This document shows positions 12,378 to 49,850 of a stretch of 64,000 bases of DNA, one piece after another (position 1 is the first letter of the stretch; every line of letters begins with the position of its first letter). Source of the stretch: Terriglobia bacterium (lineage in GTDB: Bacteria; Acidobacteriota; Terriglobia; Bryobacterales; UBA6623). The notes under the pieces are model-generated. The model did not search any database. It was not told where the DNA came from and saw nothing but the letters and a program-made list of their open reading frames with translations. Where the stretch lies: NCBI GenBank assembly GCA_009841225.1, contig VXMF01000008.1, positions 17,763 to 81,762 on the forward strand, given 5' to 3'. The position numbers were made by a program, and so were the translations under genes.

Positions 12378-13952
12378 ATGCCAAGACTTCTAGCCGCCTG
12401 TACCGCGATCCTCGCATTGCTGGGTTCCTGCACGGAGGCCCACGAGACGCCGTCAGGGAAGCCCAACATCCTGTTCGCCATCGCGGACGATGCTTCCTTT
12501 CCCCACATGGGCGCCTATGGTACGGAGTGGGTCAACACGCCGAATTTCGACCGTGTCGCACGCGACGGCGTGCTGTTCTGGAACGCATACACCCCCAACG
12601 CCAAGTGCGCCCCCTCGCGCGCGGCGATCCTCACGGGCCGCAACTCCTGGCAGCTCAACGCCGGTGCGAACCACATGGCGTTCTTTCCTCCGGAGTTCAA
12701 GAGCTACCCCGAGGCGCTCGGCGAGAACGGCTACTTCGTGGGCATGACCGCCAAGGGCTGGAGCCCCGGCGTCGCCGTCGACGCCGCAGGCAACCCGCGC
12801 AACCTCGCCGGCACTCCGTTCGACGACCGAGAGACCGACCCGCCGACCTCCAAGATGAGCCGGACTGACTACGCGGCCAACTTCGCTGACTTTCTCGCCG
12901 CCGCTCCCGCAGACCAACCCTGGGCGTTCTGGTACGGCTCCCGCGAACCGCACCGCGCCTACGAGTTCCGCTCCGGCGCGGAATTGGGCGGCAAGAGTCC
13001 AGCCGACATCGAAGATGTCTTCGACTTCTGGCCGGATACCGAAACGGTGCGCCACGACATGCTCGACTACGCCTACGAAATCGAGTACTTCGACGCGCAC
13101 TTGGGCCGGATCCTCGCAATGCTCGAGGAACACGGGCAACTCGCCAACACGCTGGTCATCGTCACTTCCGACAACGGCATGCCGTTCCCCCGCGTGAAGG
13201 CCCAGGAATACGAACTCTCCAATCACCTGCCATTGGCGATGATGTGGCTCGACGGCATACCGCGTCCTGGCCGCTCGATCCAGGACTTCGTGAGCTTCGT
13301 CGATCTGGCACCCACGATCCTTGACGCAGCCGGGGTCGAGTGGGATGCGACCGGAATGCAGCCGCCCGCAGGTCGGAGCCTGCTGGGCGTGCTCAGGTCC
13401 GACAAAGACGGCCGGGTCGAAGCCGACCGAGATCACGTCTTGATCGGCAAGGAACGGCACGATATCGGCCGCCCGAACGACGCCGGCTATCCGATCCGCG
13501 GCATCGTTCAGGGCGATCTGCTGTACCTGCGCAACTTCGCTCCGGAGCGCTGGCCGGCAGGCAATCCGGAAACGGGCTACCTAGCGGTGGACGCGAGCCC
13601 GACCAAGACGGAGATTCTCGAGCTCCGCCGCGCTGGCGGCGAAACCAGATTCTGGGAACTGGCGTTCGGCAAGCGCGGCGCGGAGGAACTCTACAACATC
13701 GCCGAAGACCCCGGCTGCCTGAACAACCTTGCCGGGGACCTGGAGTACGCTCCGGCCAAGGCCGAACTGGCGGCGCGGCTCGTCTCTGAGCTCGAAGCCC
13801 AAGGGGACCCGCGCATGGCCGGGCAAGCAGACTATTTCGAAGCCTTCCCGGTCGCCACGCGCTGGGCCGGCTACTACGAGAAGTTCATGGCGGGTGAGAT
13901 CGACGTGGCCGTCTGGATCCTGCCCAGCGACATCGACCCAGCCATGGACTGA
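12378..13952 (+). CDS. Cys-type sulfatase, predicted lipoprotein
   Basis: [22 protein letters not shown] formylglycine motif, TSDNG; lipobox LLGSC. Confidence 0.92.
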
Positions 13953-30444: not shown

Positions 30445-31902
30445 TCACTGCGTCATCCACTGCTGTCGCCTCGGCCACTTGGGGCCGTCCTCGAAGAACC
30501 TTACGCCTGTGCCAATCCGGTCATAGTCGCCAAGCTCCTCGCGTCCGGCGTCGGCCAACGCCGTCAAGCGTTCCACTACGTCAGGATGGTCGGCGGCAAC
30601 GTTGGTGGTCTCGCCGATGTCGGACTCAAGGTTATACAGGGCCAGCTCAGTGACCGGCTCGAGCAGCTCGCCCAGGAAGGCACCGGCTTTGGAAAGCAGC
30701 CACTCCGATTCGTCGCGGCCCGGCCGCGGAAACACCAACTTCCAAGGGCCGCTCCTGACCGCGTCCAGATGCGTCTCGCGGTAGTAGTAGAACGCCTCGT
30801 GCGGGCTTTCCGCTCCAGGCTCGCCCCGCATCAGGGGCCCGATGTCCCGTCCGTCCAAGGTGCGGTCGGCAGGAAGCTCCGCTCCAGCCATTTGGATAAA
30901 CGTGGGCAGCAGGTCCATCGTAGTGGCCACTTCCGATGTTTCCGTTCCGGCGGGAATGCGCCCCGGCGCCCACATCACTGTGGGCACGCGGATGCCCCCT
31001 TCCCACGTCGTGGCCTTCTCACCCCGCAGCGGCCCGGATGATCCGGCGTGTTCGGTAATCGCAGCCGTGTACTGCGGCAACGAGTGATTGCTCCACGGCC
31101 CGTTGTCGGAGGTGTAGACCACGATCGTGTTCTGATCGAGCCCTAACTCGGTGAGTAGGTCGACGATCTCGCCAGTGCTGGCGTCAAGCTCCTCGATCAC
31201 GTCCCCGTATAATCCGCGCTCCGAGCGGCCCTTGAAGGGCTCGGTGACGCCCAGCACCACATGGGCCATCGTATGGGCGATATAGAGGAAGAACGGCCCG
31301 TCCTTGTTTCGCCTGATGAAGGCGAGGGCATCGTCGGTGAACCGTCGCGTCAGGTCATCGACTCCGGCAGACTCTTGGATGCGCTCCTCATTGCGGTAGA
31401 CCCAGCGGACCTCGCCGCTGTCGTTCGCGCCCACCACCCCAAACCAATGGTCGAACCCTCGCCGTACCGGGTTCAGTTCCGGCTTGAAACCGCGGTGGCG
31501 CAGGGTGATGTCCACCTTGCCGATCATGCCCGTGGCGTAGCCGGCCTCCTGCAGCACCTTGGGCAGCAGGATCTCCTTCTCGTGCACGTACGGGAAAGTG
31601 TTCTTTTCGTTGCCGTACTCTCCGACGCGGATCGGGTAGCTTCCAGTCAGCAGGGCAGTCCGCGACGGGCCGCATACTGGCTGGGCGTAGAAGTCTGTGA
31701 ATCGCATGCCCTCGCTGGCCATGCGGTCGATGCGCGGCGTCTTGAAGTCGGTCGCGCCGAAGCAACCGAGGTCACCGTAGCCCTGGTCGTCAGCGAAGAC
31801 GATGATGAAGTTCGGGCGCTGATCGGTCTCGACCGGCGGCGAGCCGCAGCCCAACATGCAAAGCGCCGCCAACAAGGCGGACAGGTTCGTTTTCAGACGC
31901 AT
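30445..31902 (-). CDS. Cys-type arylsulfatase-like protein, predicted lipoprotein
   Basis: PNFIIVFADDQGYGDLG, CGPSRTALLTG, TSDNG, WEGGIRVP; lipobox MLGC; start placed at MRLKTN (31902). Confidence 0.92.
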   Translation of the reverse strand: MRLKTNLSALLAALCMLGCGSPPVETDQRPNFIIVFADDQGYGDLGCFGATDFKTPRIDRMASEGMRFTDFYAQPVCGPSRTALLTGSYPIRVGEYGNEKNTFPYVHEKEILLPKVLQEAGYATGMIGKVDITLRHRGFKPELNPVRRGFDHWFGVVGANDSGEVRWVYRNEERIQESAGVDDLTRRFTDDALAFIRRNKDGPFFLYIAHTMAHVVLGVTEPFKGRSERGLYGDVIEELDASTGEIVDLLTELGLDQNTIVVYTSDNGPWSNHSLPQYTAAITEHAGSSGPLRGEKATTWEGGIRVPTVMWAPGRIPAGTETSEVATTMDLLPTFIQMAGAELPADRTLDGRDIGPLMRGEPGAESPHEAFYYYRETHLDAVRSGPWKLVFPRPGRDESEWLLSKAGAFLGELLEPVTELALYNLESDIGETTNVAADHPDVVERLTALADAGREELGDYDRIGTGVRFFEDGPKWPRRQQWMTQ

Positions 31903-31943
31903 CGCTGCACTCCTCGACTCGACCATGCCAGCTCGCTCGACTT

Positions 31944-33494
31944 CTACTTGCCCTTGAGGCCGAAGCAATAGACCACCGAGTCATAATCCACTGTATAGAC
32001 TTTCCCCTCGGCAATGGCGATGCCGCTGAAGTGCACCCACGTGCCCATGGCATCACCGCTGTTGTAGAGTTCGTCACCGGTTCGCGCATCGAGCGCATGC
32101 AAGACCGCCGGCTGGGTGTTCTTGGTCTGGCGCTTTTGCACCGAGGTGCGCTGCTCAGTGTTCTCGCCGTTGGCCAGCACGAACGCCACTCCGTTCGCCA
32201 AGGCGACAGGTTCCGGCACCTTCAGGTTGCCCGAAATCCACGCCGGAGTCAGCTCGGGCCTGCCTGTGCCCGGGTTCGCCGTCACCTCAAACGCCATTAC
32301 GCTGCCGTCGGTGATCGGCCCGTGGGAGCGTGGGAACGCCGGCGCCTCCTTTGACGGCGGGCCGTAGACGGGCGCATACACCCAGCGCCGGCCCTGCTCG
32401 TCAGCCCAGGTCGAAAGGCCGCCCCAGATTCCGTAAGAACCGATGTCCTTGGGATCATTGCCGAGCCGGATCCCCTCCAGCAGCGGCGTCTGATGGTCCC
32501 GCCCGCCCAACAGGTCGGCGTCCAGCAGGTAGATCACGCCCTCCTTGGCACCGGCCGCGAGGATGTTGTAGCCCTTCCACCCGAACCATACTGGGCTGGC
32601 CGCGCCGAAGTCCAGGTCAAGCTCGTACAGCTCCCAGTGATTGCGCGGCAGGAAATAGTCCACCAGCGAGAGGTCGTCCAACGACGCCGCCACCACCGCG
32701 TTGGAATAGTCCCCTACCCGCGCGTCGAACGGCCCGTCCGCAGTCGAGCCGTAGACGCGTCCGTTCTCTCCGACGACCGGCCCGCCCCTGCCCCAAATCC
32801 CGCCCGTGGAGGTGTTAGAGAGCAGGCGCTGGCGCACCACCGGGCTGTGCCGGTCGCTGATGTCAATGGAATAGAACCCCGAGAGGCTGCCGCCGCAACC
32901 TTGGGCCAAGGTCGTGTAGATCGTGTCGCCGACGAGGTTGAGGCTCCAGTTCTTGGAAAATGCCGGAACGAATTGCACCGGCCCGTAGCGAACCTTGCCG
33001 CTGCCCATGTCCAGCCCCCACAAGGCGCCGGATTCGGCAACGGTGTACAGGATGCCGCTGCGGACATCGAGAGTTGGCGTGGCGTTGACACCGTTCGGGC
33101 AGTAGACGCTGCCTTGCAGGCCGTTGTTCGTCGGCAACTGATACAGCGTCGGCTTCCAGTCCCAGAGCTGCTCACCGGTAGCAGAATCAAGGGCAAACAC
33201 GCCCCCCTGCTTGCCTGCCACGTAGACCACGTCGCGGACGCCGAGCCGCGTCGAGACGCCCGTGCCGACCACCGGCGCCGTCAGCGAGACCAGGTACTCG
33301 GATTCGTCGTCGACCTCGGTCTTCCACTTCAACTCCAAGTTCCCGACGTTCTCGGGGCCAAGCGTTCTCTCCGAGCGCGCCCAGCCCGTGCGAGCCGGAT
33401 CGTAGCCGAACGTGGGCCAGTCGCCGGCTGCCGCCCCATCGGCGAAGCTCAGCGCGAGGCAGATCGGCCCGAGCAGTGCAGCCAGCCTATGCAT
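31944..33494 (-). CDS. Exported PQQ-type beta-propeller repeat protein
   Basis: Signal peptide; DWPTFGYDPARTG, LELKWKT, repeated ALDSATGEQLW / ALDARTGDELY blades. Confidence 0.85.
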   Translation of the reverse strand: MHRLAALLGPICLALSFADGAAAGDWPTFGYDPARTGWARSERTLGPENVGNLELKWKTEVDDESEYLVSLTAPVVGTGVSTRLGVRDVVYVAGKQGGVFALDSATGEQLWDWKPTLYQLPTNNGLQGSVYCPNGVNATPTLDVRSGILYTVAESGALWGLDMGSGKVRYGPVQFVPAFSKNWSLNLVGDTIYTTLAQGCGGSLSGFYSIDISDRHSPVVRQRLLSNTSTGGIWGRGGPVVGENGRVYGSTADGPFDARVGDYSNAVVAASLDDLSLVDYFLPRNHWELYELDLDFGAASPVWFGWKGYNILAAGAKEGVIYLLDADLLGGRDHQTPLLEGIRLGNDPKDIGSYGIWGGLSTWADEQGRRWVYAPVYGPPSKEAPAFPRSHGPITDGSVMAFEVTANPGTGRPELTPAWISGNLKVPEPVALANGVAFVLANGENTEQRTSVQKRQTKNTQPAVLHALDARTGDELYNSGDAMGTWVHFSGIAIAEGKVYTVDYDSVVYCFGLKGK

Positions 33495-33585
33495 CGCCTC
33501 TCACCGCTACATATGCTAGTGAATTGAACGGCGGCGCCGTAGCCCGCGCCGCTGGTGGGCTTCACCAAGCCAGTCCGAGCCGGCG

Positions 33586-34668
33586 TCAATCCGACGACCG
33601 GACAGCTGGCCGCGCTTCGCCTCCGATGTGAAAGATCAGTTGCTTCGGCCGGCCATCTGCGGCGAGTTCGAATTCGACGGTTGCGGCCGTCCAGCGCAGC
33701 GAGAATTCCGTCTTCGAGTGGGGTAGCAGCTCCAGTGGCGGCAGCAGTCCGAACGTCGCGTACAACGTCGCGCCGTTACGCTTTATCACCGTCGGCAGGC
33801 CCCTGCCTTGGCTGTATGTACCGACGTAACGGTCCAGCATCACCGGCGTCATCGTCATCAGCGGCTTTGTCTGGTGGCGCCCCGGGCCGGGCCGCGGCTC
33901 CTCCTCGAGCTCCCGAATCCAGATGTTGCGGTACAGGACAGGATTGCCGTGATCCTGCAGTTGCAATGGCAAGCGGTCGGGGTGGGTCTCGTAGGGGAGG
34001 TGCTGTAGCCACGATGTGGGCCCCCAAGCCTTGGAGTTGTCCTGGACCAAGACTCCGTTGTGGAATACCGTCAGGCGAGCGGGCTGCGCGACCGACCCGT
34101 CAGGCTGGAACCGTGGCCGTCGGAAGACGATGTCGTAGGCCTGCCATTCGCCCGCGGGGCGGCTGGCATTCACCAGCGGCGGGTACTGGCCGTACAGAGC
34201 CGCAGCCTGACCGTCGGCGTAGGTAACGTTCTCGAAAGAATCGAGCACCTGGATCTCGTACTTGCTCATCAGAAAGACCCCGCTGTTGCCGCGGCCTTGG
34301 CCCTTGCCGCGACCCGGCGTGGGCGCGGCCCACTCGAGGTGCAGCTGAACGTCCCCGTAGCCATCGCGCGTGAAGACAGGACCGCCGCCCGGCACGGCCG
34401 CGAGATTGCCGTCCTTGATGATCCACTTGGCCGGACCGCCGTCCGCGGCCATCCACTTCGAGAGATCCGAGCCGTCGAAGAGGAGGATCGCGTCAGACGG
34501 GGGTTTCACCGGCAGCTGCATCTGAGACACGACCTTGCGCGGCACGGGCCGCGTCATGTCGTGAATCTTCCAGCGCACCGGCGACTGGGCAGACAGCGAC
34601 GGTGCCAGCCACGCCGTGGCAGCGATGAGGGAGAGAACTGGGATTCGTGCAAGCATCGGAACTTTCAA
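33586..34668 (-). CDS. DUF1080 (3-keto-glycoside hydrolase-like) protein with an extra C-terminal domain
   Basis: PPSDAILLFDG, LHLEW, GNSGVF, YEIQVLDS, GEWQAYDI, LQDHGNPV.YRNIWIREL; signal peptide. Confidence 0.88.
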   Translation of the reverse strand: MKVPMLARIPVLSLIAATAWLAPSLSAQSPVRWKIHDMTRPVPRKVVSQMQLPVKPPSDAILLFDGSDLSKWMAADGGPAKWIIKDGNLAAVPGGGPVFTRDGYGDVQLHLEWAAPTPGRGKGQGRGNSGVFLMSKYEIQVLDSFENVTYADGQAAALYGQYPPLVNASRPAGEWQAYDIVFRRPRFQPDGSVAQPARLTVFHNGVLVQDNSKAWGPTSWLQHLPYETHPDRLPLQLQDHGNPVLYRNIWIRELEEEPRPGPGRHQTKPLMTMTPVMLDRYVGTYSQGRGLPTVIKRNGATLYATFGLLPPLELLPHSKTEFSLRWTAATVEFELAADGRPKQLIFHIGGEARPAVRSSD

Positions 34669-34751
34669 ACCTCGTTAGATTCTAGCCGCACATGCGTGGC
34701 AGCCGGACCTCAAGACAATGGCTGGCCGTAACTTCCCGTCCCCGATCTCCG

Positions 34752-37385
34752 CTAGTCGACAAACAGGAACTCGTTGCTGGCGAGCATGGCCCGCAGATAA
34801 CCGGCGCGTCTCTGCTCTTGCGTGCCGTTAGCGGTGGCAAAGTAGCTCGCAGCTTGCTCAGCATCTTGCGGGCTTGGCGCGCGAGCGAAGATGGTTTCGG
34901 TCGCCCTCTCCAAGAAATCGTCCCGCACTGGAAGATCGGCGCTCCAGCGCTCCGCCATGGCCTGAGCCTGTTCGTGCATGAACTCCGAGTTCATCAGGTA
35001 CAGCGCCTGCAGGGTGGTAGTGGTTGACTTCCGCTCGCTCATTGGCAGATTGCCATCCGGCCCGTCGAACAAGTCCAAATACGGATTCTTCTGAATCCTT
35101 CCCTGCATGATGTACACGGAGCGCCGGTTGGTGGGGAAGTATTCCGCGAACGGTTCGTGCTGGCGGTAGAAGTAGGTCCGGCGGTGCGGGAAGGGGTGCC
35201 GTCCTCCTTTGGATAGATCGAGTTCTCCGCTGAACGCCAGAATCGAATCGCGAATCTGCTCCGCATCAAGGCGTCTGCGGTTGAAGCGCCACACGTGTCG
35301 GTTCTGGGGGTCCTTGTCGAAGTTGTGACCGCTGTCGGAGCTGACCTGGCGATACGCCCTCGAGTGGACGATCAAGCGGTGCATGGCCTTGACCGACCAA
35401 CCGCTGTCGATGAAGTAGCGGGCCAAATAGTCCAGCAGCTCCGGGTGAGTGGGAGGCGTGCCGCGCACGCCGAAGTCGCTGGTCGTGCTGACCAGTCCGG
35501 TGCCGAAGTGGTGATGCCAGATGCGGTTGACCATCACGCGAGCGGTGAGCGGGTTGTCTTCGTCAGCGATCCAATCGGCCAGCAAACTGCGCCCGCTGCC
35601 CTCGTAGCTCGGCGGCAGCTTGGCGCCGCCAAGGATCTGCAAGAAGCCGCGGCGAACTTCGGGCCCCTTTGAGCGCGGATCGCCAGCCTGATGAATGTGC
35701 GAATCCTTGCCGACGCCCTCACTGATGGCGTAGGCCGTCTCCAACGGAGGCTCCGTGCGGGCGAAGACAGCTCGCTCGGCCCGGAGCTCCTGCAACTCGG
35801 CCCACACAACGATCCGGTTGCGTCCGGGAGTGGTGATCAGCTTGTTTTGGAACGACTGGTACTCGCGAAACTTCTCCCGCTCGCGGTCATTCCAGTGCGT
35901 GATGCCCTGTTCGTACTCGGCCAAGACTTCGCGGGCCTTGTCCGCGCCGACTCGGTACACGAAGTTGCTGCGATAGGGCAGATGCTCCGCACCGGGGCTT
36001 GGAAAGACCGAGCTGTCCAGAATCCCATAGAGCGCGTAGTAGTCGGCGGTTGGGATCGGATCGAACTTATGGTCGTGGCAGCGGGCGCACTGCACGCTAA
36101 GGCCCAGGAAAGTCTTGCCTAGGTTGTCGATCGTATCCTCGAGAGTAATGTGGCGCAGCCGGTGGGGGCTAACCCCGATACGGCGGGAGATCGCTAGGTA
36201 GCCAGTGGCTACGATCTTGCTCCAACGCTCAAGCTCGCCATGCGACGGCAGTAGGTCGCCGGCGATCTGCTCACGGATGAACTCGTCATAGGGCTTGTCG
36301 CCTTGGAACGCGTCGATGACGTAGTTCCGGTACTTGTACGCCTCCGGGACTGGAAAATCCCCGGAATCGCCAGCCGTGTCGGCATAGCGCACCAAGTCCA
36401 GCCAGTGGCGCCCCCAGCGCTCGCCGTAGCGCGGCGATCGCAGGAGGCGTTCGACTAGGTCCGAATACGCGGTCTGGGATTCATCGGCTAAGAAATCCTT
36501 GATCTCCTGTGGTGTGGGTGGCAGCCCGGTCAAGTCGAAGGTCAGGCGCCGGATCATGGTGCGCTTGCTGGCGAGCGGAGACGGTTCCAAGCCCTCGCTC
36601 TCCAAGCGCGCAAGTAGAAAGCGGTCGGCGGCGTTGGCGGATTCGTAAACACCCGCCGGAGTTGGCACGGCGCCCTGCCAAAGTGGCTGGAAGGCCCAGT
36701 GCTGGCGATGCTCTTCGCTGATTTCGTATGGCTCCACCGCTTTCCCGGCACCCTGCCCCCAGACCGCCCCGTCAGAGATCCACTGCACGATGTCATCCAC
36801 CTCATTAGCCGGCAGCGCCCCCGTCGGCGGCATCTTCAGATCGTGCTCGTAGCGGACGGTCTTGACCAGCAAGCTAGCGTCTGCATTGCCCTTGACCAAT
36901 GCAGGACCTGATTTGCCGCCCTTGAGCAGAGCCTCTAGCGAGTCCATGCGAAGGCCGCCTTGCGGCTCCGTCAGGTGGCAACCGAAGCACTTCGACTCCA
37001 ACACGGGCTTGATACGCGCCTCAAAGAACTCTCGGGGAGACATCGGCCACGGCGCCCCCATCGCAATCCACTGCTCAAGCGCTTCAAACGCGTGGGGCTC
37101 GAGCCGCTGGCCCGCGGGCGGCATGGCCATGCGTCCCTTGATGCCTTGAATCGCGTGCAGCAGGATGCTGCCTTCCGGATCCCCGGGCTGGATCGCCGGG
37201 CCGGACCGGCCGCCCTTGAGCAATCCGGCGCGTGAATCGAGGCGCAGCCCCGCTGTAGCATTCTCGGCGTGGCAGCCGTAGCAGCGGGCGAGTACCGGAC
37301 GCACCTTGGATTCGAAGAACTCCGCTTCCGGTGTCGCTGCCGCCAACTGCGCGAGCGCTAGGAGCGCCATCGGCCAAAGACGCAT
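34752..37385 (-). CDS. Planctomycete-type cytochrome c protein (2x PSCyt1 + DUF1549 + DUF1553)
   Basis: CYGCH, CFGCH, CARCHDHKFDP heme motifs; RRLTFDLTGLPPT, YGERWGRHWLDLVRYAD, ARVMVNRIWHHHFG, RRLDAEQIRDS; signal peptide. Confidence 0.92.
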   Translation of the reverse strand: MRLWPMALLALAQLAAATPEAEFFESKVRPVLARCYGCHAENATAGLRLDSRAGLLKGGRSGPAIQPGDPEGSILLHAIQGIKGRMAMPPAGQRLEPHAFEALEQWIAMGAPWPMSPREFFEARIKPVLESKCFGCHLTEPQGGLRMDSLEALLKGGKSGPALVKGNADASLLVKTVRYEHDLKMPPTGALPANEVDDIVQWISDGAVWGQGAGKAVEPYEISEEHRQHWAFQPLWQGAVPTPAGVYESANAADRFLLARLESEGLEPSPLASKRTMIRRLTFDLTGLPPTPQEIKDFLADESQTAYSDLVERLLRSPRYGERWGRHWLDLVRYADTAGDSGDFPVPEAYKYRNYVIDAFQGDKPYDEFIREQIAGDLLPSHGELERWSKIVATGYLAISRRIGVSPHRLRHITLEDTIDNLGKTFLGLSVQCARCHDHKFDPIPTADYYALYGILDSSVFPSPGAEHLPYRSNFVYRVGADKAREVLAEYEQGITHWNDREREKFREYQSFQNKLITTPGRNRIVVWAELQELRAERAVFARTEPPLETAYAISEGVGKDSHIHQAGDPRSKGPEVRRGFLQILGGAKLPPSYEGSGRSLLADWIADEDNPLTARVMVNRIWHHHFGTGLVSTTSDFGVRGTPPTHPELLDYLARYFIDSGWSVKAMHRLIVHSRAYRQVSSDSGHNFDKDPQNRHVWRFNRRRLDAEQIRDSILAFSGELDLSKGGRHPFPHRRTYFYRQHEPFAEYFPTNRRSVYIMQGRIQKNPYLDLFDGPDGNLPMSERKSTTTTLQALYLMNSEFMHEQAQAMAERWSADLPVRDDFLERATETIFARAPSPQDAEQAASYFATANGTQEQRRAGYLRAMLASNEFLFVD

Positions 37386-37517: not shown

Positions 37518-39092
37518 ATGCCGAAACATTCGACCCGCCGCCAGTTCGCCAAGAGTTCCGCCGCTGCACTGCTGGCTTCCTCGCCCGCCCTTTGGGGTTG
37601 CAAGGACAACGCTGCCGGACCTGCAGGACCCGCGCCGCTCAGCAGGCTCGCCCACGCCGGGCACACGCTTCATGGCCGAGAGCGCGTGTTTCGCCCGCCG
37701 ACTTGGGGGCCGGCCACGCGCCGCCGCTTCGATGGCAAGAACGTCATCGTCCTGATGCTGGACAGCTTTCGCTGGGACCATCTCGGCGCCTTCGGAAATT
37801 CCAAGGCACCCACCCCCAACCTGGACGAGTTCGCCTCCCAATCAACGTTCTTCACGCACTCCTACCCGGAAGGCCTGCCGACCGTCCCTGTGCGCACCAG
37901 CCTCCTCACGGGGCGCTTCACCTATCCCTACCGCCGCTGGCAGGTGCTCTATCCCGAGGATCACCCCCTGCTTCCGGAGATCCTCTGGAGCGAGGGCTTC
38001 CGCACTGCCTTGATCAGCGACACGTACCACCTCCACAAGCCGTCCTATGGCTTCTCGCGGGGATTCGACGATGTCAAGTGGCTGCGCGGCCAGGAGCAAG
38101 ATCCGTACGTGCGCGATCCGGCGATCATCGACTCGATCGATGTCTCACGCCGGTTCAAGCCTCGCGGGGAACGCCCCAACGAAGAGCGCGAGACCAGGAC
38201 TTACCTCGCCAACCGCCACGATTGGAAGACTGACGAGGATCACTTCACGCCGCGCATCATGCGCTCGGCGGTGGAGTGGCTGGAAAAGCAACCCCGCAAG
38301 GAGAATCTGTTCCTGTGGATCGACAACTTCTGCCCGCACGAGCCGTGGGATCCGCCGGAGAGCTATCTCAAGCAGGTCGATCCGGACTTTGCGAACTGGG
38401 AGGTGCGCAATATCTGTCCGGTGCCGGGCGACAGCGCCGGCTATCTGGATGCGGAAGAGCTACGCCAGGTGCTGGCACTCTATGCAGCCGTGGTCCGTTT
38501 TGTCGATGCGTGGGTGGGCTACTTTCTCGATGAAGTCAGGCGCATGGGCATGTACGACAACACGATGATCGTGGTCATGACCGATCACGGCGAGCCGTTC
38601 GGCGATCACGGCATCGTGCGCAAGGTCAGGCCATGGGGCTACGAAGAGCTGGCGCGGACCTTCCTGATGATCCGCGACCCCTCGGGCGGTGGGGTGGAGC
38701 GGGTCGACTCCTATGTCCAACAGACCGATGCCACAGCAACTATCCTCGACTGGCTGGGAATCGACAGGCCCGCCCACATGACCTCGGAGAGCCTGATGCC
38801 ACTGATCCGGGGCCAGCAGGAGAAGATCCGCGACGAGTCCGTGTGCTGCCACTACAACGAAAGCATCTCCGTCCGACACGACGAGTGGAGCTACCACTGG
38901 TTCGTCGAGAACTCGCGGGCCAGGGCCTCTGACCGGAGCTCGATCGTCAAGGAGGCACCGGAGCTCTACAACCTGCGCGAAGACCCCTCCGAACAGAACA
39001 ATCTGGCGCTTCAGGAACCTGAACGGGTCGCGGACATGGACCGCAGGATGCGAGCCTTCACCCAGGATCTGCTAGACCGCGAGCGAGCATAG
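37518..39092 (+). CDS. Sulfatase-fold hydrolase with Thr at the nucleophile position; Tat lipoprotein
   Basis: TRRQF Tat motif plus lipobox LWGC; NVIVLMLDSFRWDH, LPTVPVRTSLLTG, PHEPWDPP, TDHG. Confidence 0.85.
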   Translation: MPKHSTRRQFAKSSAAALLASSPALWGCKDNAAGPAGPAPLSRLAHAGHTLHGRERVFRPPTWGPATRRRFDGKNVIVLMLDSFRWDHLGAFGNSKAPTPNLDEFASQSTFFTHSYPEGLPTVPVRTSLLTGRFTYPYRRWQVLYPEDHPLLPEILWSEGFRTALISDTYHLHKPSYGFSRGFDDVKWLRGQEQDPYVRDPAIIDSIDVSRRFKPRGERPNEERETRTYLANRHDWKTDEDHFTPRIMRSAVEWLEKQPRKENLFLWIDNFCPHEPWDPPESYLKQVDPDFANWEVRNICPVPGDSAGYLDAEELRQVLALYAAVVRFVDAWVGYFLDEVRRMGMYDNTMIVVMTDHGEPFGDHGIVRKVRPWGYEELARTFLMIRDPSGGGVERVDSYVQQTDATATILDWLGIDRPAHMTSESLMPLIRGQQEKIRDESVCCHYNESISVRHDEWSYHWFVENSRARASDRSSIVKEAPELYNLREDPSEQNNLALQEPERVADMDRRMRAFTQDLLDRERA

Positions 39093-45956: not shown

Positions 45957-47234
45957 TTAGCTCCAGAGCTCTTCGACGGGCTGGCCTTCCTTGTTGATGG
46001 CAATCGGTCGGCCGTTGGCGTGGTAGTTCTTGCGGTAGTCGATTCCCAGCGCTTCATAGACGGTCGCGCCGAGATCTTCGATGCTGACCGGGCGGCGAAT
46101 CGGCTCCGCCGCGTGCCCGTCGGTCTCGCCGATGACCGCACCGCCCTGTATCCCGGCACCGGCGAGCGCCACCGAGAAGGCGCCCGGCCAATGATCGCGG
46201 CCACCGGAGAAATTGATCTTCGGAGTCCGTCCGAAATCTCCGATCACAAGCACTAACGTCGAATCCAACAGCCCCCGCTGCTCAAGGTCTTCCAACAACG
46301 TGACGAATGCTCGGTCAAATTCCGGGACCAGCTTCTTGTGCTCGGGCTCGTTATTGACATGGGTGTCGTATCCCCACTGGAAGATGCTGGCTAGGCGAAC
46401 GCCCGCTTCTACTAGGCGGCGCGCCAGCAGGGCGCCCTGTCCGATGGTCGTGCGCCCGTAAGCGTCGCGCAGCTCGGCCGGCTCGGCCGAGATGTCGAAT
46501 GCCTGCTTGGCTGCCGGCGAAGAGATCAAGTCGAACGCCTTCTGGTAGAACTCGTCCATGGAGTCGATCAGCGGGGACTGTTCGACCCGCTGGAACTCTC
46601 GATTCAGCGCTCCCAGAAGCTCGGTGCGCGAGCGGGCCTCGGACAAGTTGATCCCGCCGGGCAGCGTCAGGTCCTGGACCGAGAAGTTCTCCGCCGTCGG
46701 CTCCCCGCTCACGAACGGATCGAAAGTCGGGCCGAGAAAGCCCGCCTCGGCCGACAAATCGGCCATTGGAATCGACACGAACGGCGGCAGGCCGTTCTTC
46801 GGGCCGAGCTCCTTTGCGAGCGTCGCCCCATAGCTCGGCTGCAGCACTTCGTTCCTGGGCTTGGTTCCGCTAAATACGTATTGCCGGGCACGCTCGTGGA
46901 TCGCTTCGTCGGAATGCATCGAGCGGATGATGGAGAACTTGTGGAGTGCCTTGGCGGAGCGCGGGAGCAGTTCAGACACCCGGACTCCCGGCACGGCGGT
47001 GGGAATCGCCTTGAAGCTGCCGCGAATGTCCGAGACGGCCTCGGGCTTGGGATCGAACGTGTCCAGCTGGCTGGCGCCGCCGGCTTGGAACAGTACGATG
47101 CAGGACCGCTCGCTACCTTCGCTGGCAGCAAGCAGCCTTGTCAGGTTGATGCCGGAGAACGCAAGCGATCCGACCTTGAGAAAGTCGCGTCGGCTAGCGC
47201 CGAACAGTGCTCTTGGAGGCCGGACGATTGGCAT
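45957..47234 (-). CDS. DUF1501 family protein, Tat substrate, copy A
   Basis: SRRDFLK Tat motif; GGASQLDTFDPKP, SIIRSMH, YDTH, GDFGRTP, GRDHWP. Confidence 0.92.
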   Translation of the reverse strand: MPIVRPPRALFGASRRDFLKVGSLAFSGINLTRLLAASEGSERSCIVLFQAGGASQLDTFDPKPEAVSDIRGSFKAIPTAVPGVRVSELLPRSAKALHKFSIIRSMHSDEAIHERARQYVFSGTKPRNEVLQPSYGATLAKELGPKNGLPPFVSIPMADLSAEAGFLGPTFDPFVSGEPTAENFSVQDLTLPGGINLSEARSRTELLGALNREFQRVEQSPLIDSMDEFYQKAFDLISSPAAKQAFDISAEPAELRDAYGRTTIGQGALLARRLVEAGVRLASIFQWGYDTHVNNEPEHKKLVPEFDRAFVTLLEDLEQRGLLDSTLVLVIGDFGRTPKINFSGGRDHWPGAFSVALAGAGIQGGAVIGETDGHAAEPIRRPVSIEDLGATVYEALGIDYRKNYHANGRPIAINKEGQPVEELWS

Positions 47235-47246
47235 CGTGACACCTTC

Positions 47247-49850
47247 TCAGTGATTGAGCTGGAACTCCTCGGAATTCAGCACCGCCCAGAGCACGTTCTC
47301 GAACGCCCTGCGGCGACTGCGCCCTGCGGCTCGCTCGGCGGCGACGAACCGAGCGATTCGGCCCTGCTCCCTCTGGCTGGGCGGGCGGGCATAGGCACGT
47401 TCGTAGAGCGTGGCGACCAGTTGCCCGTCGGCAATGCCCTGCCCCAGTAGATCGCCCAAGATGTTGCCTTCCGCCCCCACCTTGTCGCGCACCGTCGCAC
47501 CGTTCATTAGATGCAGCGCTTGACTCAGTGTGGGCTCTGGCACCCGATCCTTCAAGATGTCCCGACGCGGCAGCCCAAAAGCTACCAAGAAATAGTCCGG
47601 GCCGTCCGGTACATAGATGTCCTTTGCGGAGGTGCCCTCCGGGTAGCCGTCGAAGGGATGCGGGACGCCCGTGACTTGACCCAAGATGTCGAGTAGCACC
47701 TCCGCTGACAGCCGGCGCGGCTGGTAGCTGCCGAACAGCGTACGACGGACCGGGCTCGAATCATTCGCACGGGACGACAGCTGGTAGGTCCGCGAGTTCA
47801 AGATCGCGCGATGGAGGGGCTTGAGTCGGTATCCGTTGCGGACGAAGAACTCCGCCAGCCGATCCAGAAGCTCAGGGTTCGAGGGCTGGTTCGTGGAGCG
47901 AAAGTCATCGTACGGCTCCACGATGCCGGTACCGAAGTACTGGTGCCACACGCGGTTGACCGTGGCCTTTGCGAAGTACGGATTCTCAGCCGAGACGATC
48001 CAGTCGGCCAAGACATCGCGCCTATCGCGTCCCTTCGGGATGTCGGGCGCGGGGCCTCCCAAGAACTTTGGAGGCACCTGCCGCTTGGTCGCGGGATGCT
48101 CGACCTCGCCCTCCTCGTCGACGTACCAAGTGCGGCGGTACGCGCCGTAGCCGTGCTTGACCCGCAAGCGGGCGAAAAAAGCCGCCAAGCCGTAGAAGTC
48201 GTCCTGTGTGTAGTTCTCCAACGGATGGCTATGGCATTCGGCACACTCCATGCGCACGCCAAGGAACAACCGCGACACCGTTGGCGTCACCTTGGCAACG
48301 CTGAACTCCTTGAGCATGAAGTCCGTGGCGGGATGCCAGAAGTTGGCAGCCGGGTTGAGCATCGTGTCCCCGGTGCTCGTCAGCAGCTCTCGCGCGAATT
48401 CGTCATATGGCCGGTCGTCCGCCAGCCAATCCCGGACCCAGTCCTTGAAGACCCCCATCGAGCGGCCTTGCGAGTGCAGCTGGCAATTGCGGAACCAGTC
48501 CTCGAACCGCACTGTCCAATGCGAGGCGTGCTCCGGCCGCTCCAGCAATCTGTCGATCAGGTGCGACCGCTTGTCTGCTCTGCTGTCCTGCACGAAGGAG
48601 CGCACCTCATGCGGTTCCGGCAGCAGGCCGATGGAGTCCAGATAGACCCGCCGCACGAATTCCTGATCGGATGTCGGGGCGGACGGCCTGACATTCATCT
48701 GACGGAGCTTTGCGAAGACCGCTTCGTCGATGAAGTTGCCCGTCTCGTAGGCGGGATAGTCCGGTCCGGCCACCGCATCTAGGACGCCGATTTGCGAGGT
48801 CGCCACCTTGCCCATCGCACGCGCCGTGACAGTCACCAGTCCCCGGCTCTCTGCAGCCAAGGTGCCGTTGGGAGCGATCTCGGCGATGGCGCTGTCGCCC
48901 GAGAAGTAGCGCACCTCGCGAGTCATGTCTCGCGTGCTGCCGTCGGACAGACGTCCGATCGCGACCATCCTCTGTTCTGCACCCGAACCCACGAGCACGC
49001 GCTCGGACGGATACAACTCCAGCCGTTCCAACCGGGCGCCGTGGCTTCCGAACGGCGCTCCTTGGCGCAGCCAGCTGAGGATCGTCTCGTACTCTTCGGA
49101 ATCCCTTTCCATCAGCCGACCGCCGCCATGAGTCTCCTGAAAGGTGGGCTTGCGCAGGAGCAAGCTTTGCTCGGGGTTCTCCAAGTCGACCCGCTGCCCG
49201 TCGCGGCCCGCGACGATCGCATCGTGGTCAGCCCCGATGTCGTACCCGAACAGTGAGAGCTTGAATCCGGCTTGGCCGGCGGGAGATCCGTGGCACGCGG
49301 ATCCGTTGCACCCTTTCAACGTCAATATCGAGACGATATCCGTTGCAAAGCTGACCGCGACTTCGCGCTCGCCCGCTCCCACGCGCACCTCGGTCGTCGC
49401 GGAGAGCGAGCCGCACTGGGCCCGCACTTCGGCGCGACCCTGCGCAACACCGACCAGCCTCGCTAGAGCGGTGTCAACCCGAACCACTGCTGGGGCGGAC
49501 GAGGTCACGAAGCAATCGTGGCTGACGTCTGCCTCGTGGCCGGTGGCGTCCACGGCCGTCAGCAGGAAGCCCTGCGCGAGGCCCGGCTCGGCTAGAACGA
49601 TGCCCGTGGGCTCGAAGCGCAACGCTTGCCAGTCGGACTGCTGCGATTCAGCAGGGGCCGGCACCGCAAGCGCGGCGAATATGGCGACTGCAGCTCGGCC
49701 GGCAATCCCCCGCGCTTGAGCCGGGTCGCGGTCCCTCGCGGGGAGCCCGATCCGGCGACGGAGTCGCCAGCACGCCGCGACAGCTTGGCACCCCATGCCA
49801 CCTAGGATTCTACATCCCAGAAGCTGCGAGCGGTCCCTCCGCCAAGGCAC
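47247..49850 (-). CDS. Ig-like + DUF1549 + DUF1553 c-type heme protein, copy A
   Basis: GCNGSACHG, GFKLSLFG, FVRRVYLDSIG, RMECAECHSHP, TVNRVW, PRRLSAEVLLD; true start probably 49796 or later. Confidence 0.92.
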   Translation of the reverse strand: MPWRRDRSQLLGCRILGGMGCQAVAACWRLRRRIGLPARDRDPAQARGIAGRAAVAIFAALAVPAPAESQQSDWQALRFEPTGIVLAEPGLAQGFLLTAVDATGHEADVSHDCFVTSSAPAVVRVDTALARLVGVAQGRAEVRAQCGSLSATTEVRVGAGEREVAVSFATDIVSILTLKGCNGSACHGSPAGQAGFKLSLFGYDIGADHDAIVAGRDGQRVDLENPEQSLLLRKPTFQETHGGGRLMERDSEEYETILSWLRQGAPFGSHGARLERLELYPSERVLVGSGAEQRMVAIGRLSDGSTRDMTREVRYFSGDSAIAEIAPNGTLAAESRGLVTVTARAMGKVATSQIGVLDAVAGPDYPAYETGNFIDEAVFAKLRQMNVRPSAPTSDQEFVRRVYLDSIGLLPEPHEVRSFVQDSRADKRSHLIDRLLERPEHASHWTVRFEDWFRNCQLHSQGRSMGVFKDWVRDWLADDRPYDEFARELLTSTGDTMLNPAANFWHPATDFMLKEFSVAKVTPTVSRLFLGVRMECAECHSHPLENYTQDDFYGLAAFFARLRVKHGYGAYRRTWYVDEEGEVEHPATKRQVPPKFLGGPAPDIPKGRDRRDVLADWIVSAENPYFAKATVNRVWHQYFGTGIVEPYDDFRSTNQPSNPELLDRLAEFFVRNGYRLKPLHRAILNSRTYQLSSRANDSSPVRRTLFGSYQPRRLSAEVLLDILGQVTGVPHPFDGYPEGTSAKDIYVPDGPDYFLVAFGLPRRDILKDRVPEPTLSQALHLMNGATVRDKVGAEGNILGDLLGQGIADGQLVATLYERAYARPPSQREQGRIARFVAAERAAGRSRRRAFENVLWAVLNSEEFQLNH

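Follow-up and report, generated by a model that had tools for sequence, protein, structure and literature searches.

A conserved threonine at the formylglycine position defines a sulfatase-fold family with a predicted exported lipoprotein clade in a sponge symbiont

The window analyzed here is a stretch of 64,000 nucleotides of contig VXMF01000008.1 (positions 17,763 to 81,762, assembly GCA_009841225.1), from a Terriglobia bacterium of the Bryobacterales. Positions 37518 to 39092 of its forward strand hold an open and intact ORF of 524 amino acids, whose product (P0001) has a sulfatase fold. Pfam assigns this protein to Sulfatase PF00884 (6.9e-36, 124.5 bits) together with SGSH_C; Phosphodiest (PF01663) is also matched, more weakly and above its cut-off, and the NCBIfam matches, of the arylsulfatase type, are all sub-threshold. 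The features of the gene and of one neighbor are the following.

34752..37385, - strand: divergent PSCyt1/DUF1549/DUF1553 neighbor of 877 aa (Pfam), given as context only
37518..39092, + strand: Thr-type sulfatase-fold protein P0001, whole ORF (PF00884, 6.9e-36; AlphaFold2 [AF2] pLDDT 92.5)
37533..37553, + strand: twin-arginine motif T6-R-R-Q-F-A-K12, read from the sequence; [ST]RRxF in orthologs
37590..37601, + strand: lipobox L25-W-G-C28 with predicted lipidated Cys28, read from the sequence; a Cys ends the h-region in all full-length orthologs
37602..37736, + strand: linker of about 45 aa, H..LPGR..VF.PP.WGP..R, present in the exported clade only (ortholog N termini)
37761..37766, + strand: Asp82-Ser83, with Asp82 as the conserved first metal ligand and Ser/Thr83 in place of the S1 Asp/Gln
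37881..37895, + strand: T122-V-P-V-R126, with Thr at the formylglycine position and the Pro and Arg of the sulfatase signature kept
38019..38030, + strand: D168-T-Y-H171, with Asp in place of the sulfate-binding Lys of G-K-x-H (alignment to 7oz8 and 4upi)
38322..38342, + strand: D269-N-F-C-P-H274-E275, a family-specific Asp and Glu flanking the conserved His
38583..38588, + strand: D356-H357, metal ligands of the DHG motif
38607..38624, + strand: H364...K369, with K369 as the retained Lys of the sulfatase His-Lys general-acid pair

In S1 sulfatases, the formylglycine (FGly) position is the first residue of the signature (C/S)-x-P-x-R, a Cys or Ser that becomes oxidized. In P0001, bases 37881-37895 (ACC GTC CCT GTG CGC, inside GLPTVPVRTSLLTG) encode T122-V-P-V-R126, surrounded by G-L-P-T-V-P-V-R-T-S-L-L-T-G, and phmmer and profile alignments place Thr122 in the Cys/Ser column of the solved S1 sulfatases (for example, opposite the S of S-T-P-A-R in 7oz8). 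In the same alignments, the first metal ligand corresponds to Asp82 and the DHG ligands to Asp356-His357. A previous sequence-only reading of the window had pointed to this Thr and to a first metal motif of LDS instead of ADD, and both are confirmed, the latter as L-D82-S83. The contrast that it drew with the other two sulfatases of the window also holds, as these have C-A-P-S-R, with an ADD motif (12378-13952, + strand), and C-G-P-S-R (30445-31968, - strand).

The Thr is a property of a large group of proteins. A word-indexed search for close homologs (42-92% identity) found Thr at position 122 in 119 out of 119, and representatives of 50%-identity clusters have Thr in 144/149 cases and Cys in 5/149. 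The sequence-only reading had asked whether TxPxR defines a clade of homologs or whether close homologs all carry Cys or Ser, and these counts, together with the tree presented below, answer in favor of a large clade. At 24 orthologous loci of related genomes the Thr is encoded by all four codons (ACC 14, ACG 6, ACT 3, and ACA 1), which shows that purifying selection acts on this residue. A misread or misassembled sequence, or a mutation peculiar to this strain in an otherwise ordinary Cys/Ser sulfatase, has virtually no probability as an explanation, since ACC and TGC are two substitutions apart, the frame and the Thr are kept at the 24 orthologous loci and in independent sponge metagenome contigs, and the wider family has the Thr too; the homolog counts and the codon turnover rule it out.

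The rest of the active site is conserved as a family-specific set, composed of D82-[ST]83-x-R85-x-D87, P121-T122-x-P124-x-R126, [ST]-D168-T-x-H171, D/E269-x-F-D-P-H274-E275-P-W-D, D356-H357-G358, H364, and K369. D82 is invariant, and position 83 is Ser or Thr in 148 of 149 representatives. The Lys of G-K-x-H, which in sulfatases binds the sulfate oxygens (K113 in PAS and K102 in SmCS), is replaced by Asp168, found in 143 of 149 representatives, and the same position is Lys in 129 sulfatase-like ORFs of this genome. The nearby His171 is less constant, with only 106 of about 150 representatives keeping it. Around the conserved His, D/E269 and H274 are present in all 150 cluster representatives and E275 in 148 of them, and K369, aligned to the DHG-x6-H-x4-K stretch of 7oz8, appears in 145/147. 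We mapped P0001 on SmCS using the residues Asp14, Gln15, Cys54, Lys102, His104, His201, Asp296, His297, and Lys309, among which His201 and Lys309 are the general-acid pair from which the role of K369 is taken (PMC5870055). By this mapping, the metal triad, the signature Arg, and the His-Lys pair are all retained, the Lys for the nonbridging sulfate oxygens becomes Asp168, the Gln/Asp after the first ligand becomes Ser/Thr, and Asp269 and Glu275 are new relative to the sulfatase. At 30-45% identity, D82, D356, H357, R126, H274, and K369 are conserved at about 97-100%, a near-invariance that implies selection on catalysis and argues for the Thr-type family being an active enzyme with Thr as its likely nucleophile. 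The substitution of Lys by Asp168 and the added Asp269 and Glu275 fit an altered chemistry.

When all ORFs of the genome were searched with the family profile, 197 matched, of which about 170 are Cys-type, with C-x-P-x-R, DD or DQ at positions 82-83, Lys, and A, G, S, or P at position 269. The combination of Thr, Asp168, Asp/Glu269, and Glu275 is found only in the P0001 gene and in a single paralog, which is encoded on contig C26 and likewise has a Tat leader with a lipobox, and D168, D/E269, and E275 co-occur in only 2 of about 174 sulfatase-like ORFs, both of them Thr-type. These two score 621 and 463 bits with the profile, and no other ORF exceeds 269 bits. A third Thr-type protein of the genome has T-G-P-S-H, with His at position 269, and is only 26% identical to P0001; it represents another Thr-type branch. 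The His at position 269 in this TxPxH paralog is again a residue of the metal-ligand type. A search for maturases found six FGE-domain genes in the genome but no anSME, so maturation is available for the Cys-type enzymes and is irrelevant to the Thr. The earlier suggestion that the Thr might carry a different modification finds no support in this repertoire, as FGE-domain genes act on Cys and anSME is missing. We also sought family-bearing genomes lacking maturases, and all five complete genomes had an FGE-domain gene or an anSME; maturase independence is therefore not shown by maturase absence.

In a FastTree phylogeny (LG+gamma) of 154 family members and the 12 best-scoring Cys-type sulfatases of this genome, the TxPxR family is monophyletic with a support of 0.94. 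The five members with Cys group together in one small clade (support of 0.96) nested deep in the Thr clade, from which it follows that Thr is ancestral for the family and Cys a secondary reversal, and this small clade keeps the D168/D269/E275 background otherwise unchanged. The family reaches up to 882 clusters at 50% identity with E ≤ 1e-30, with more than 597 loci among species-representative genomes. Its taxonomic spread, read from 80 loci in named genomes, includes Poribacteria, Armatimonadota, Planctomycetota, Chloroflexota, Bacillota, Desulfobacterota (including the cultured Desulfoluna), and Desulfovibrionaceae (Bilophila and Mailhella) among bacteria and Bathyarchaeia, Thermoprotei, Hadarchaeota, and an Asgard lineage (Promethearchaeota) among archaea. 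The closest named relatives of P0001 are Bryobacterales (Acidobacteriota) MAGs. The orthologs all come from the window's own family of genomes, and a phylum-wide sample of 200 Acidobacteriota genomes had no ortholog at E ≤ 1e-60. The host is a sulfatase-rich sponge symbiont, and sponge metagenomes of about a dozen studies contain P0001 DNA. One RNA-library contig spans the whole ORF at about 93.5% identity, which alone is no proof of transcription.

The N terminus of P0001 contains, in this order, TRRQFAK, AAALLASSPA, and LWGC28, and the full-length orthologs with at least 56% identity all have the RR motif, the lipobox Cys, and the conserved linker of about 45 residues. From this signal pattern, P0001 is predicted to be a Tat-exported lipoprotein. 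The linker is absent from the cytoplasmic majority of the family, whose proteins start with MNVIV..D[ST]. Of 217 proteins of the wider family, 190 (about 88%) begin at the first strand without a leader, and 17 have RR leaders. The clade of the window gene thus appears to be an exported lipoprotein branch within a family that is mainly cytoplasmic. Tat export had previously been read as a hint of special cytoplasmic metal loading or modification. This did not hold up, as strict Tat motifs are found on at least nine Cys-type sulfatase paralogs of the same genome and Tat export is therefore nothing special for P0001.

The divergent PSCyt1/DUF1549/DUF1553 gene and a DUF1080 neighbor are syntenic in four of six same-genus loci. 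Among more distant orthologs, a head-to-head arrangement with a DUF1549/DUF1553 and DUF1501 pair recurs once, independently, at locus L065. Since the genome codes for 63 DUF1553 genes, we did not accept a functional link from this adjacency. No conserved operon partner for the exported clade was found across the genera compared, its neighbors varying by genus (TctA, a split Cys-sulfatase, PhyH/SDR, lactonase/PQQ, and transposase), and the exported-clade neighborhoods examined contain no glycan-assembly or lipid-modification genes. A promoter and terminator scan at the gene gave nothing usable. A distant cytoplasmic branch, mainly of Desulfobacterota, has recurrent co-directional TRAP transporter genes and a sigma-54 activator, as well as thioredoxin or thioredoxin reductase neighbors (8 loci). 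Many of the distant cytoplasmic members come from organisms that respire sulfate or organosulfur compounds.

A model built by AlphaFold2 from a 140-sequence alignment reached a pLDDT of 92.5 and a pTM of 0.89. In this model strand 110-116 is followed by helix 123-131, and Thr122 caps the N-terminal end of this helix, the canonical place of the nucleophile. Asp82, Asp168, Asp269, and Asp356 each lie at the C-terminal end of a central-sheet strand, which puts all four on the active-site face of the model. The top fold matches are S1 sulfatases and phosphonate monoester hydrolases (PMHs), with VIA-align Z scores of 30 to 36, rmsd of 2.3 to 3.0 over 350 to 393 residues, and a Foldseek E value of 1e-25. 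They are followed by Thr-type PF00884 proteins (YejM, Z of 31; EptC, 28; LtaS/LtaP, 25 to 26; EptA/MCR-1, 25) and by NPP and PafA (Z of 22 to 23), and none of the solved structures belongs to the Thr-type family. From the alignment and the secondary structure of the model, Thr122 fits the placement of the Ser/Thr nucleophile of NPP, PafA, LtaS, and EptA, near the Asp/Asp-His site. Candidate ligands for a second metal are D269-x4-H274 and D168.

Thr cannot be converted to formylglycine (PMC5066984), which excludes the cycle of FGly gem-diol and elimination, and the conservation of Thr122 and the TxPxR clade support the earlier view that this is not a conventional sulfatase. The phosphodiesterase or phosphonate hydrolase activity suggested in the sequence-only reading is plausible. 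For the nucleophile role of the Thr, the second metal, and the substrate class, we infer a metallo-hydrolase that needs no maturation, uses Thr as its nucleophile, acts on phosphate or phosphonate esters, and possibly binds a second metal, at a probability of about 0.45. P0001 would then be a catalytically active, FGly-independent enzyme of the alkaline phosphatase superfamily on an S1-sulfatase scaffold, exported folded via Tat and tethered to the membrane as a lipoprotein. Thr122 would be activated by a divalent metal on Asp82, Asp356, and His357 and would attack an anionic ester, with the leaving group protonated by His274-Lys369, as in sulfatases. The three proposed changes of the site are the replacement of Lys by Asp168 and the addition of Asp269 and Glu275, and Asp269, five residues before His274, would occupy the topological position of the second-site Asp-x3-His of AP and NPP. 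As the Lys is lost and three carboxylates sit beside the anion site, the site would bind a second metal ion or recognize a cationic group of the substrate. PAS-type sulfatases are mononuclear while AP and NPP are dinuclear, and a Ser/Thr alkoxide with a bimetal center is the standard solution of the AP superfamily for phosphoryl transfer (PMC3693508), which, with the NPP-like ligand order, favors a phosphate or phosphonate ester hydrolase. In the periplasm of the sponge symbiont, the substrates that P0001 prefers would be mono- or diesters of phosphate or phosphonate and not sulfate esters.

The PF01663 match above its cut-off supports the phosphoesterase reading. Several observations go against it, namely, the sulfatase-type Arg126 and His274-Lys369 that are kept, the closest folds, all of them S1 or PMH, the sulfatase-rich host, the distant members in sulfur respirers near TRAP and thioredoxin genes, which would fit sulfur-ester chemistry, and the need for Agl30/Agl31 in glycan sulfation, which suggests that the fold can do sulfuryl transfer (PMC11980604). 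A maturation-independent sulfatase, in which Thr122 attacks sulfur and the sulfo-threonine is hydrolyzed by metal-activated water with no FGE or anSME, would make use of a scaffold, R126, H274, and K369 that are all sulfatase-like. It would also suit the sulfated-glycan diet to which the roughly 170 Cys-type sulfatases and the life in sponges point, and many distant members are from Desulfovibrionaceae and Desulfobacterota, with TRAP importers next to them. We consider it rather unlikely, however, as the sulfate-binding Lys is lost, three acidic residues lie next to the would-be sulfate site, and nothing forces FGly avoidance in a genome with six FGE-domain genes. To our knowledge, there is no hydrolytic S-O-cleaving sulfatase without FGly. 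The efficient S-O-cleaving sulfatases all use FGly, and an alkyl-sulfate enzyme intermediate is very inert (PMC5066984). That the TxPxR proteins form an FGly-independent sulfatase class, with a metal-activated Thr and a second metal on Asp168, Asp269, and His274, is unlikely; if true, it would break the rule that FGly is required for S-O cleavage by sulfatases of this fold and explain the abundance of the family in anaerobes, archaea, and sponge symbionts.

The Thr-nucleophile PF00884 members LtaS and EptA/MCR-1, structural relatives with Z scores of 25 to 31, are transferases, and P0001 could likewise pass a Thr-phospho (or Thr-sulfo) group to an envelope glycan or lipid, as LtaS, EptA, and OpgB do and as has been proposed for Agl30/Agl31. 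The lipoprotein tether would hold the domain at the membrane surface, and the genetics of Agl30/Agl31 go in the same direction (PMC11980604). Nevertheless, group transfer seems quite improbable for a family of which about 88% (190/217) is leaderless, soluble, and cytoplasmic, whose exported clade has no glycan-assembly or lipid-modification genes as neighbors, and which keeps the full S1 C-terminal subdomain and Arg126, unlike LtaS, EptA, and the TxPxH paralog of the genome; an activated donor is not evident in the periplasm either. Loss of FGly and of the key Lys, with His171 kept in only 106 of about 150 representatives, could also describe a descendant of a sulfatase that has lost catalysis, be it a pseudoenzyme or a ligand-binding protein. 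We regard this as very improbable, given that Thr, the three metal ligands, Arg, His, and Lys are near-invariant over hundreds of 50% clusters from bacteria and archaea and that the replacement residues are themselves conserved and not drifting. A Thr-nucleophile hydrolase of phosphate or phosphonate esters is thus the reading that we prefer.

Surveys of sponge symbionts, Planctomycetes, Poribacteria, and sediment archaea score every PF00884 protein as a sulfatase. As the TxPxR family cannot make formylglycine and has a remodeled anion site, its members are probably misannotated as sulfatases. The authors of SulfAtlas already pointed to many Thr-bearing sequences in the PF00884 seed, which cannot count as sulfatases (PMC5066984), and we found in the literature nothing on a TxPxR or Thr-type sulfatase and no characterized member of the family. 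The new elements are an exported Tat-lipoprotein clade, a signature of D168, D269, and E275 set against about 170 Cys-type paralogs of the same genome, and the nested Cys reversal. In biochemical terms, the TxPxR family would stand as an intermediate in evolution, with mononuclear FGly sulfatases on one side and Thr-based phosphoryl-transfer enzymes on the other, and it offers a system to study how the nucleophile, the Lys-to-Asp swap, and a possible second metal tune specificity for sulfate versus phosphate, with the nested Thr-to-Cys reversal clade as a natural control.

Among known systems, the S1 sulfatases and PMHs (6hr5, FA22250, S1_25; 4upl, SpAS2; 7oz8, BT1918, S1_46; 6g5z, SmCS; and 2vqr, RlPMH) match P0001 in both fold domains. 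Common to S1 sulfatases and P0001 are the two-subdomain fold, the x-P-x-R-xxxx-T-G frame, the Asp...Asp-His ligands, and the His-Lys acid pair. P0001 differs by having Thr instead of the FGly-competent Cys/Ser, Asp168 instead of the Lys of G-K-x-H, Ser/Thr and not Asp/Gln as the second residue of the metal motif, and the extra Asp269 and Glu275, and its family is a clade of its own. The NCBIfam "manganese-dependent arylsulfatase" (EfAS) was rejected as a counterpart, as EfAS uses Cys61 and not Thr. The LtaS/EptA type of PF00884 proteins has a Thr nucleophile and a metal site of Glu/Asp, Thr, and Asp-His. LtaS/LtaP, EptA/EptC/MCR-1, and YejM/PbgA have the core fold in common with P0001 (Z of 25 to 31), and the LtaS/EptA type resembles it also in the putative Thr nucleophile and the extracytoplasmic, membrane-tethered domain. 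Unlike P0001, these proteins have a 5-TM-helix anchor and lack the Arg of x-P-x-R and the S1 C-terminal subdomain; identity to P0001 is only 11 to 17%, and the NCBIfam match is marginal (31.6 bits against a cut-off of 970). NPP and PafA use a Thr nucleophile with the ligand order D(beta1) - Thr - D-x(3-4)-H - D-H, mirrored in P0001 by D82 - T122 - D269-x4-H274 - D356-H357, but P0001 has x4 and not x3 spacing, keeps the sulfatase K369 and R126, and no third ligand for a second metal site was found in it. Last, Agl30 (VNG1056C) and Agl31 (VNG1057C) of Halobacterium salinarum, described in 2025, are sulfatase-fold proteins genetically required for N-glycan sulfation (PMC11980604). They are an example of the sulfatase or AP-like fold in a nonsulfatase role, and Agl31 is soluble and cytoplasmic, like most of the TxPxR family.

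Besides P0001, the predicted Tat-lipoprotein of the window with Thr122 at the formylglycine position, the source genome (G000) carries the following Thr-type genes:

G000:C26:72466-73836, minus strand (L002): TxPxR paralog of P0001, reading M-P-T-I-P-I-R, with DT, Asp168, and Glu269
L014:985-2409 on G000:C51, plus strand: signal-anchored sulfatase-fold protein of 474 aa, in which T-G-P-S-H replaces C-x-P-x-R

The C26 paralog resembles P0001 in its RR leader and L-S-G-C lipobox, and paralogs of this type were found in all 30 same-genus genomes searched, a wider spread than that of the ortholog of the window's own gene. The C51 protein represents a second Thr-type branch within the same genome, with 26% identity to P0001, His where P0001 has Asp269, weak NCBIfam matches to EptA/MCR and PafA, and an F-D-P-H-E-P motif in common with P0001's family. 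In sponge and marine metagenomes, summed contig depth was maximal exactly at the FDPHEPW and SDHG codons (window 38324-38387 and 38580-38643), where short DNA stretches are common to sulfatase-like genes of many other organisms.

Five family representatives (P0183, P0195, P0207, P0246, and P0258) have Cys in Thr's place, keep the rest of the signature (D[ST]/D168/D-E269/E275) unchanged, and fall in one nested clade. This clade is a natural reversal from Thr to Cys, in which FGly might form.

Distant cytoplasmic members, from Desulfobacterota and one Phycisphaerae, lie one to three genes from co-directional thioredoxin and thioredoxin reductase genes (loci L125, L129, L141, L144, L146, L147, L149, and L150, among others), and TRAP transporter and sigma-54 activator genes also recur nearby. 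Beside a 78%-identical ortholog, a Cys-type sulfatase seems to be divided between two adjacent ORFs (L063:7264-9090, minus strand), one with the N-terminal half of PF00884 and the other with the C-terminal half, and may be a frameshifted gene.

Within the window, the minus-strand region 30445-37385 contains an 877-aa gene with two PSCyt1 domains, DUF1549, and DUF1553, with no adjoining DUF1501 partner there. After it come genes for a DUF1080 protein, a PQQ propeller, and a Cys-type sulfatase. Elsewhere in the window lies the canonical arrangement:

Window 45957-49850, minus strand: DUF1549/1553 and DUF1501 pair

The 5.7-Mb genome, in which the window is C31:17763-81762, contains 197 ORFs of at least 300 aa matching the sulfatase profile (C-x-P-x-R in approximately 170), 63 DUF1553 (PSD1) genes, six FGE-domain genes, and no anSME. 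The gene repertoire of this sponge-associated member of the Bryobacterales is Planctomycete-like.
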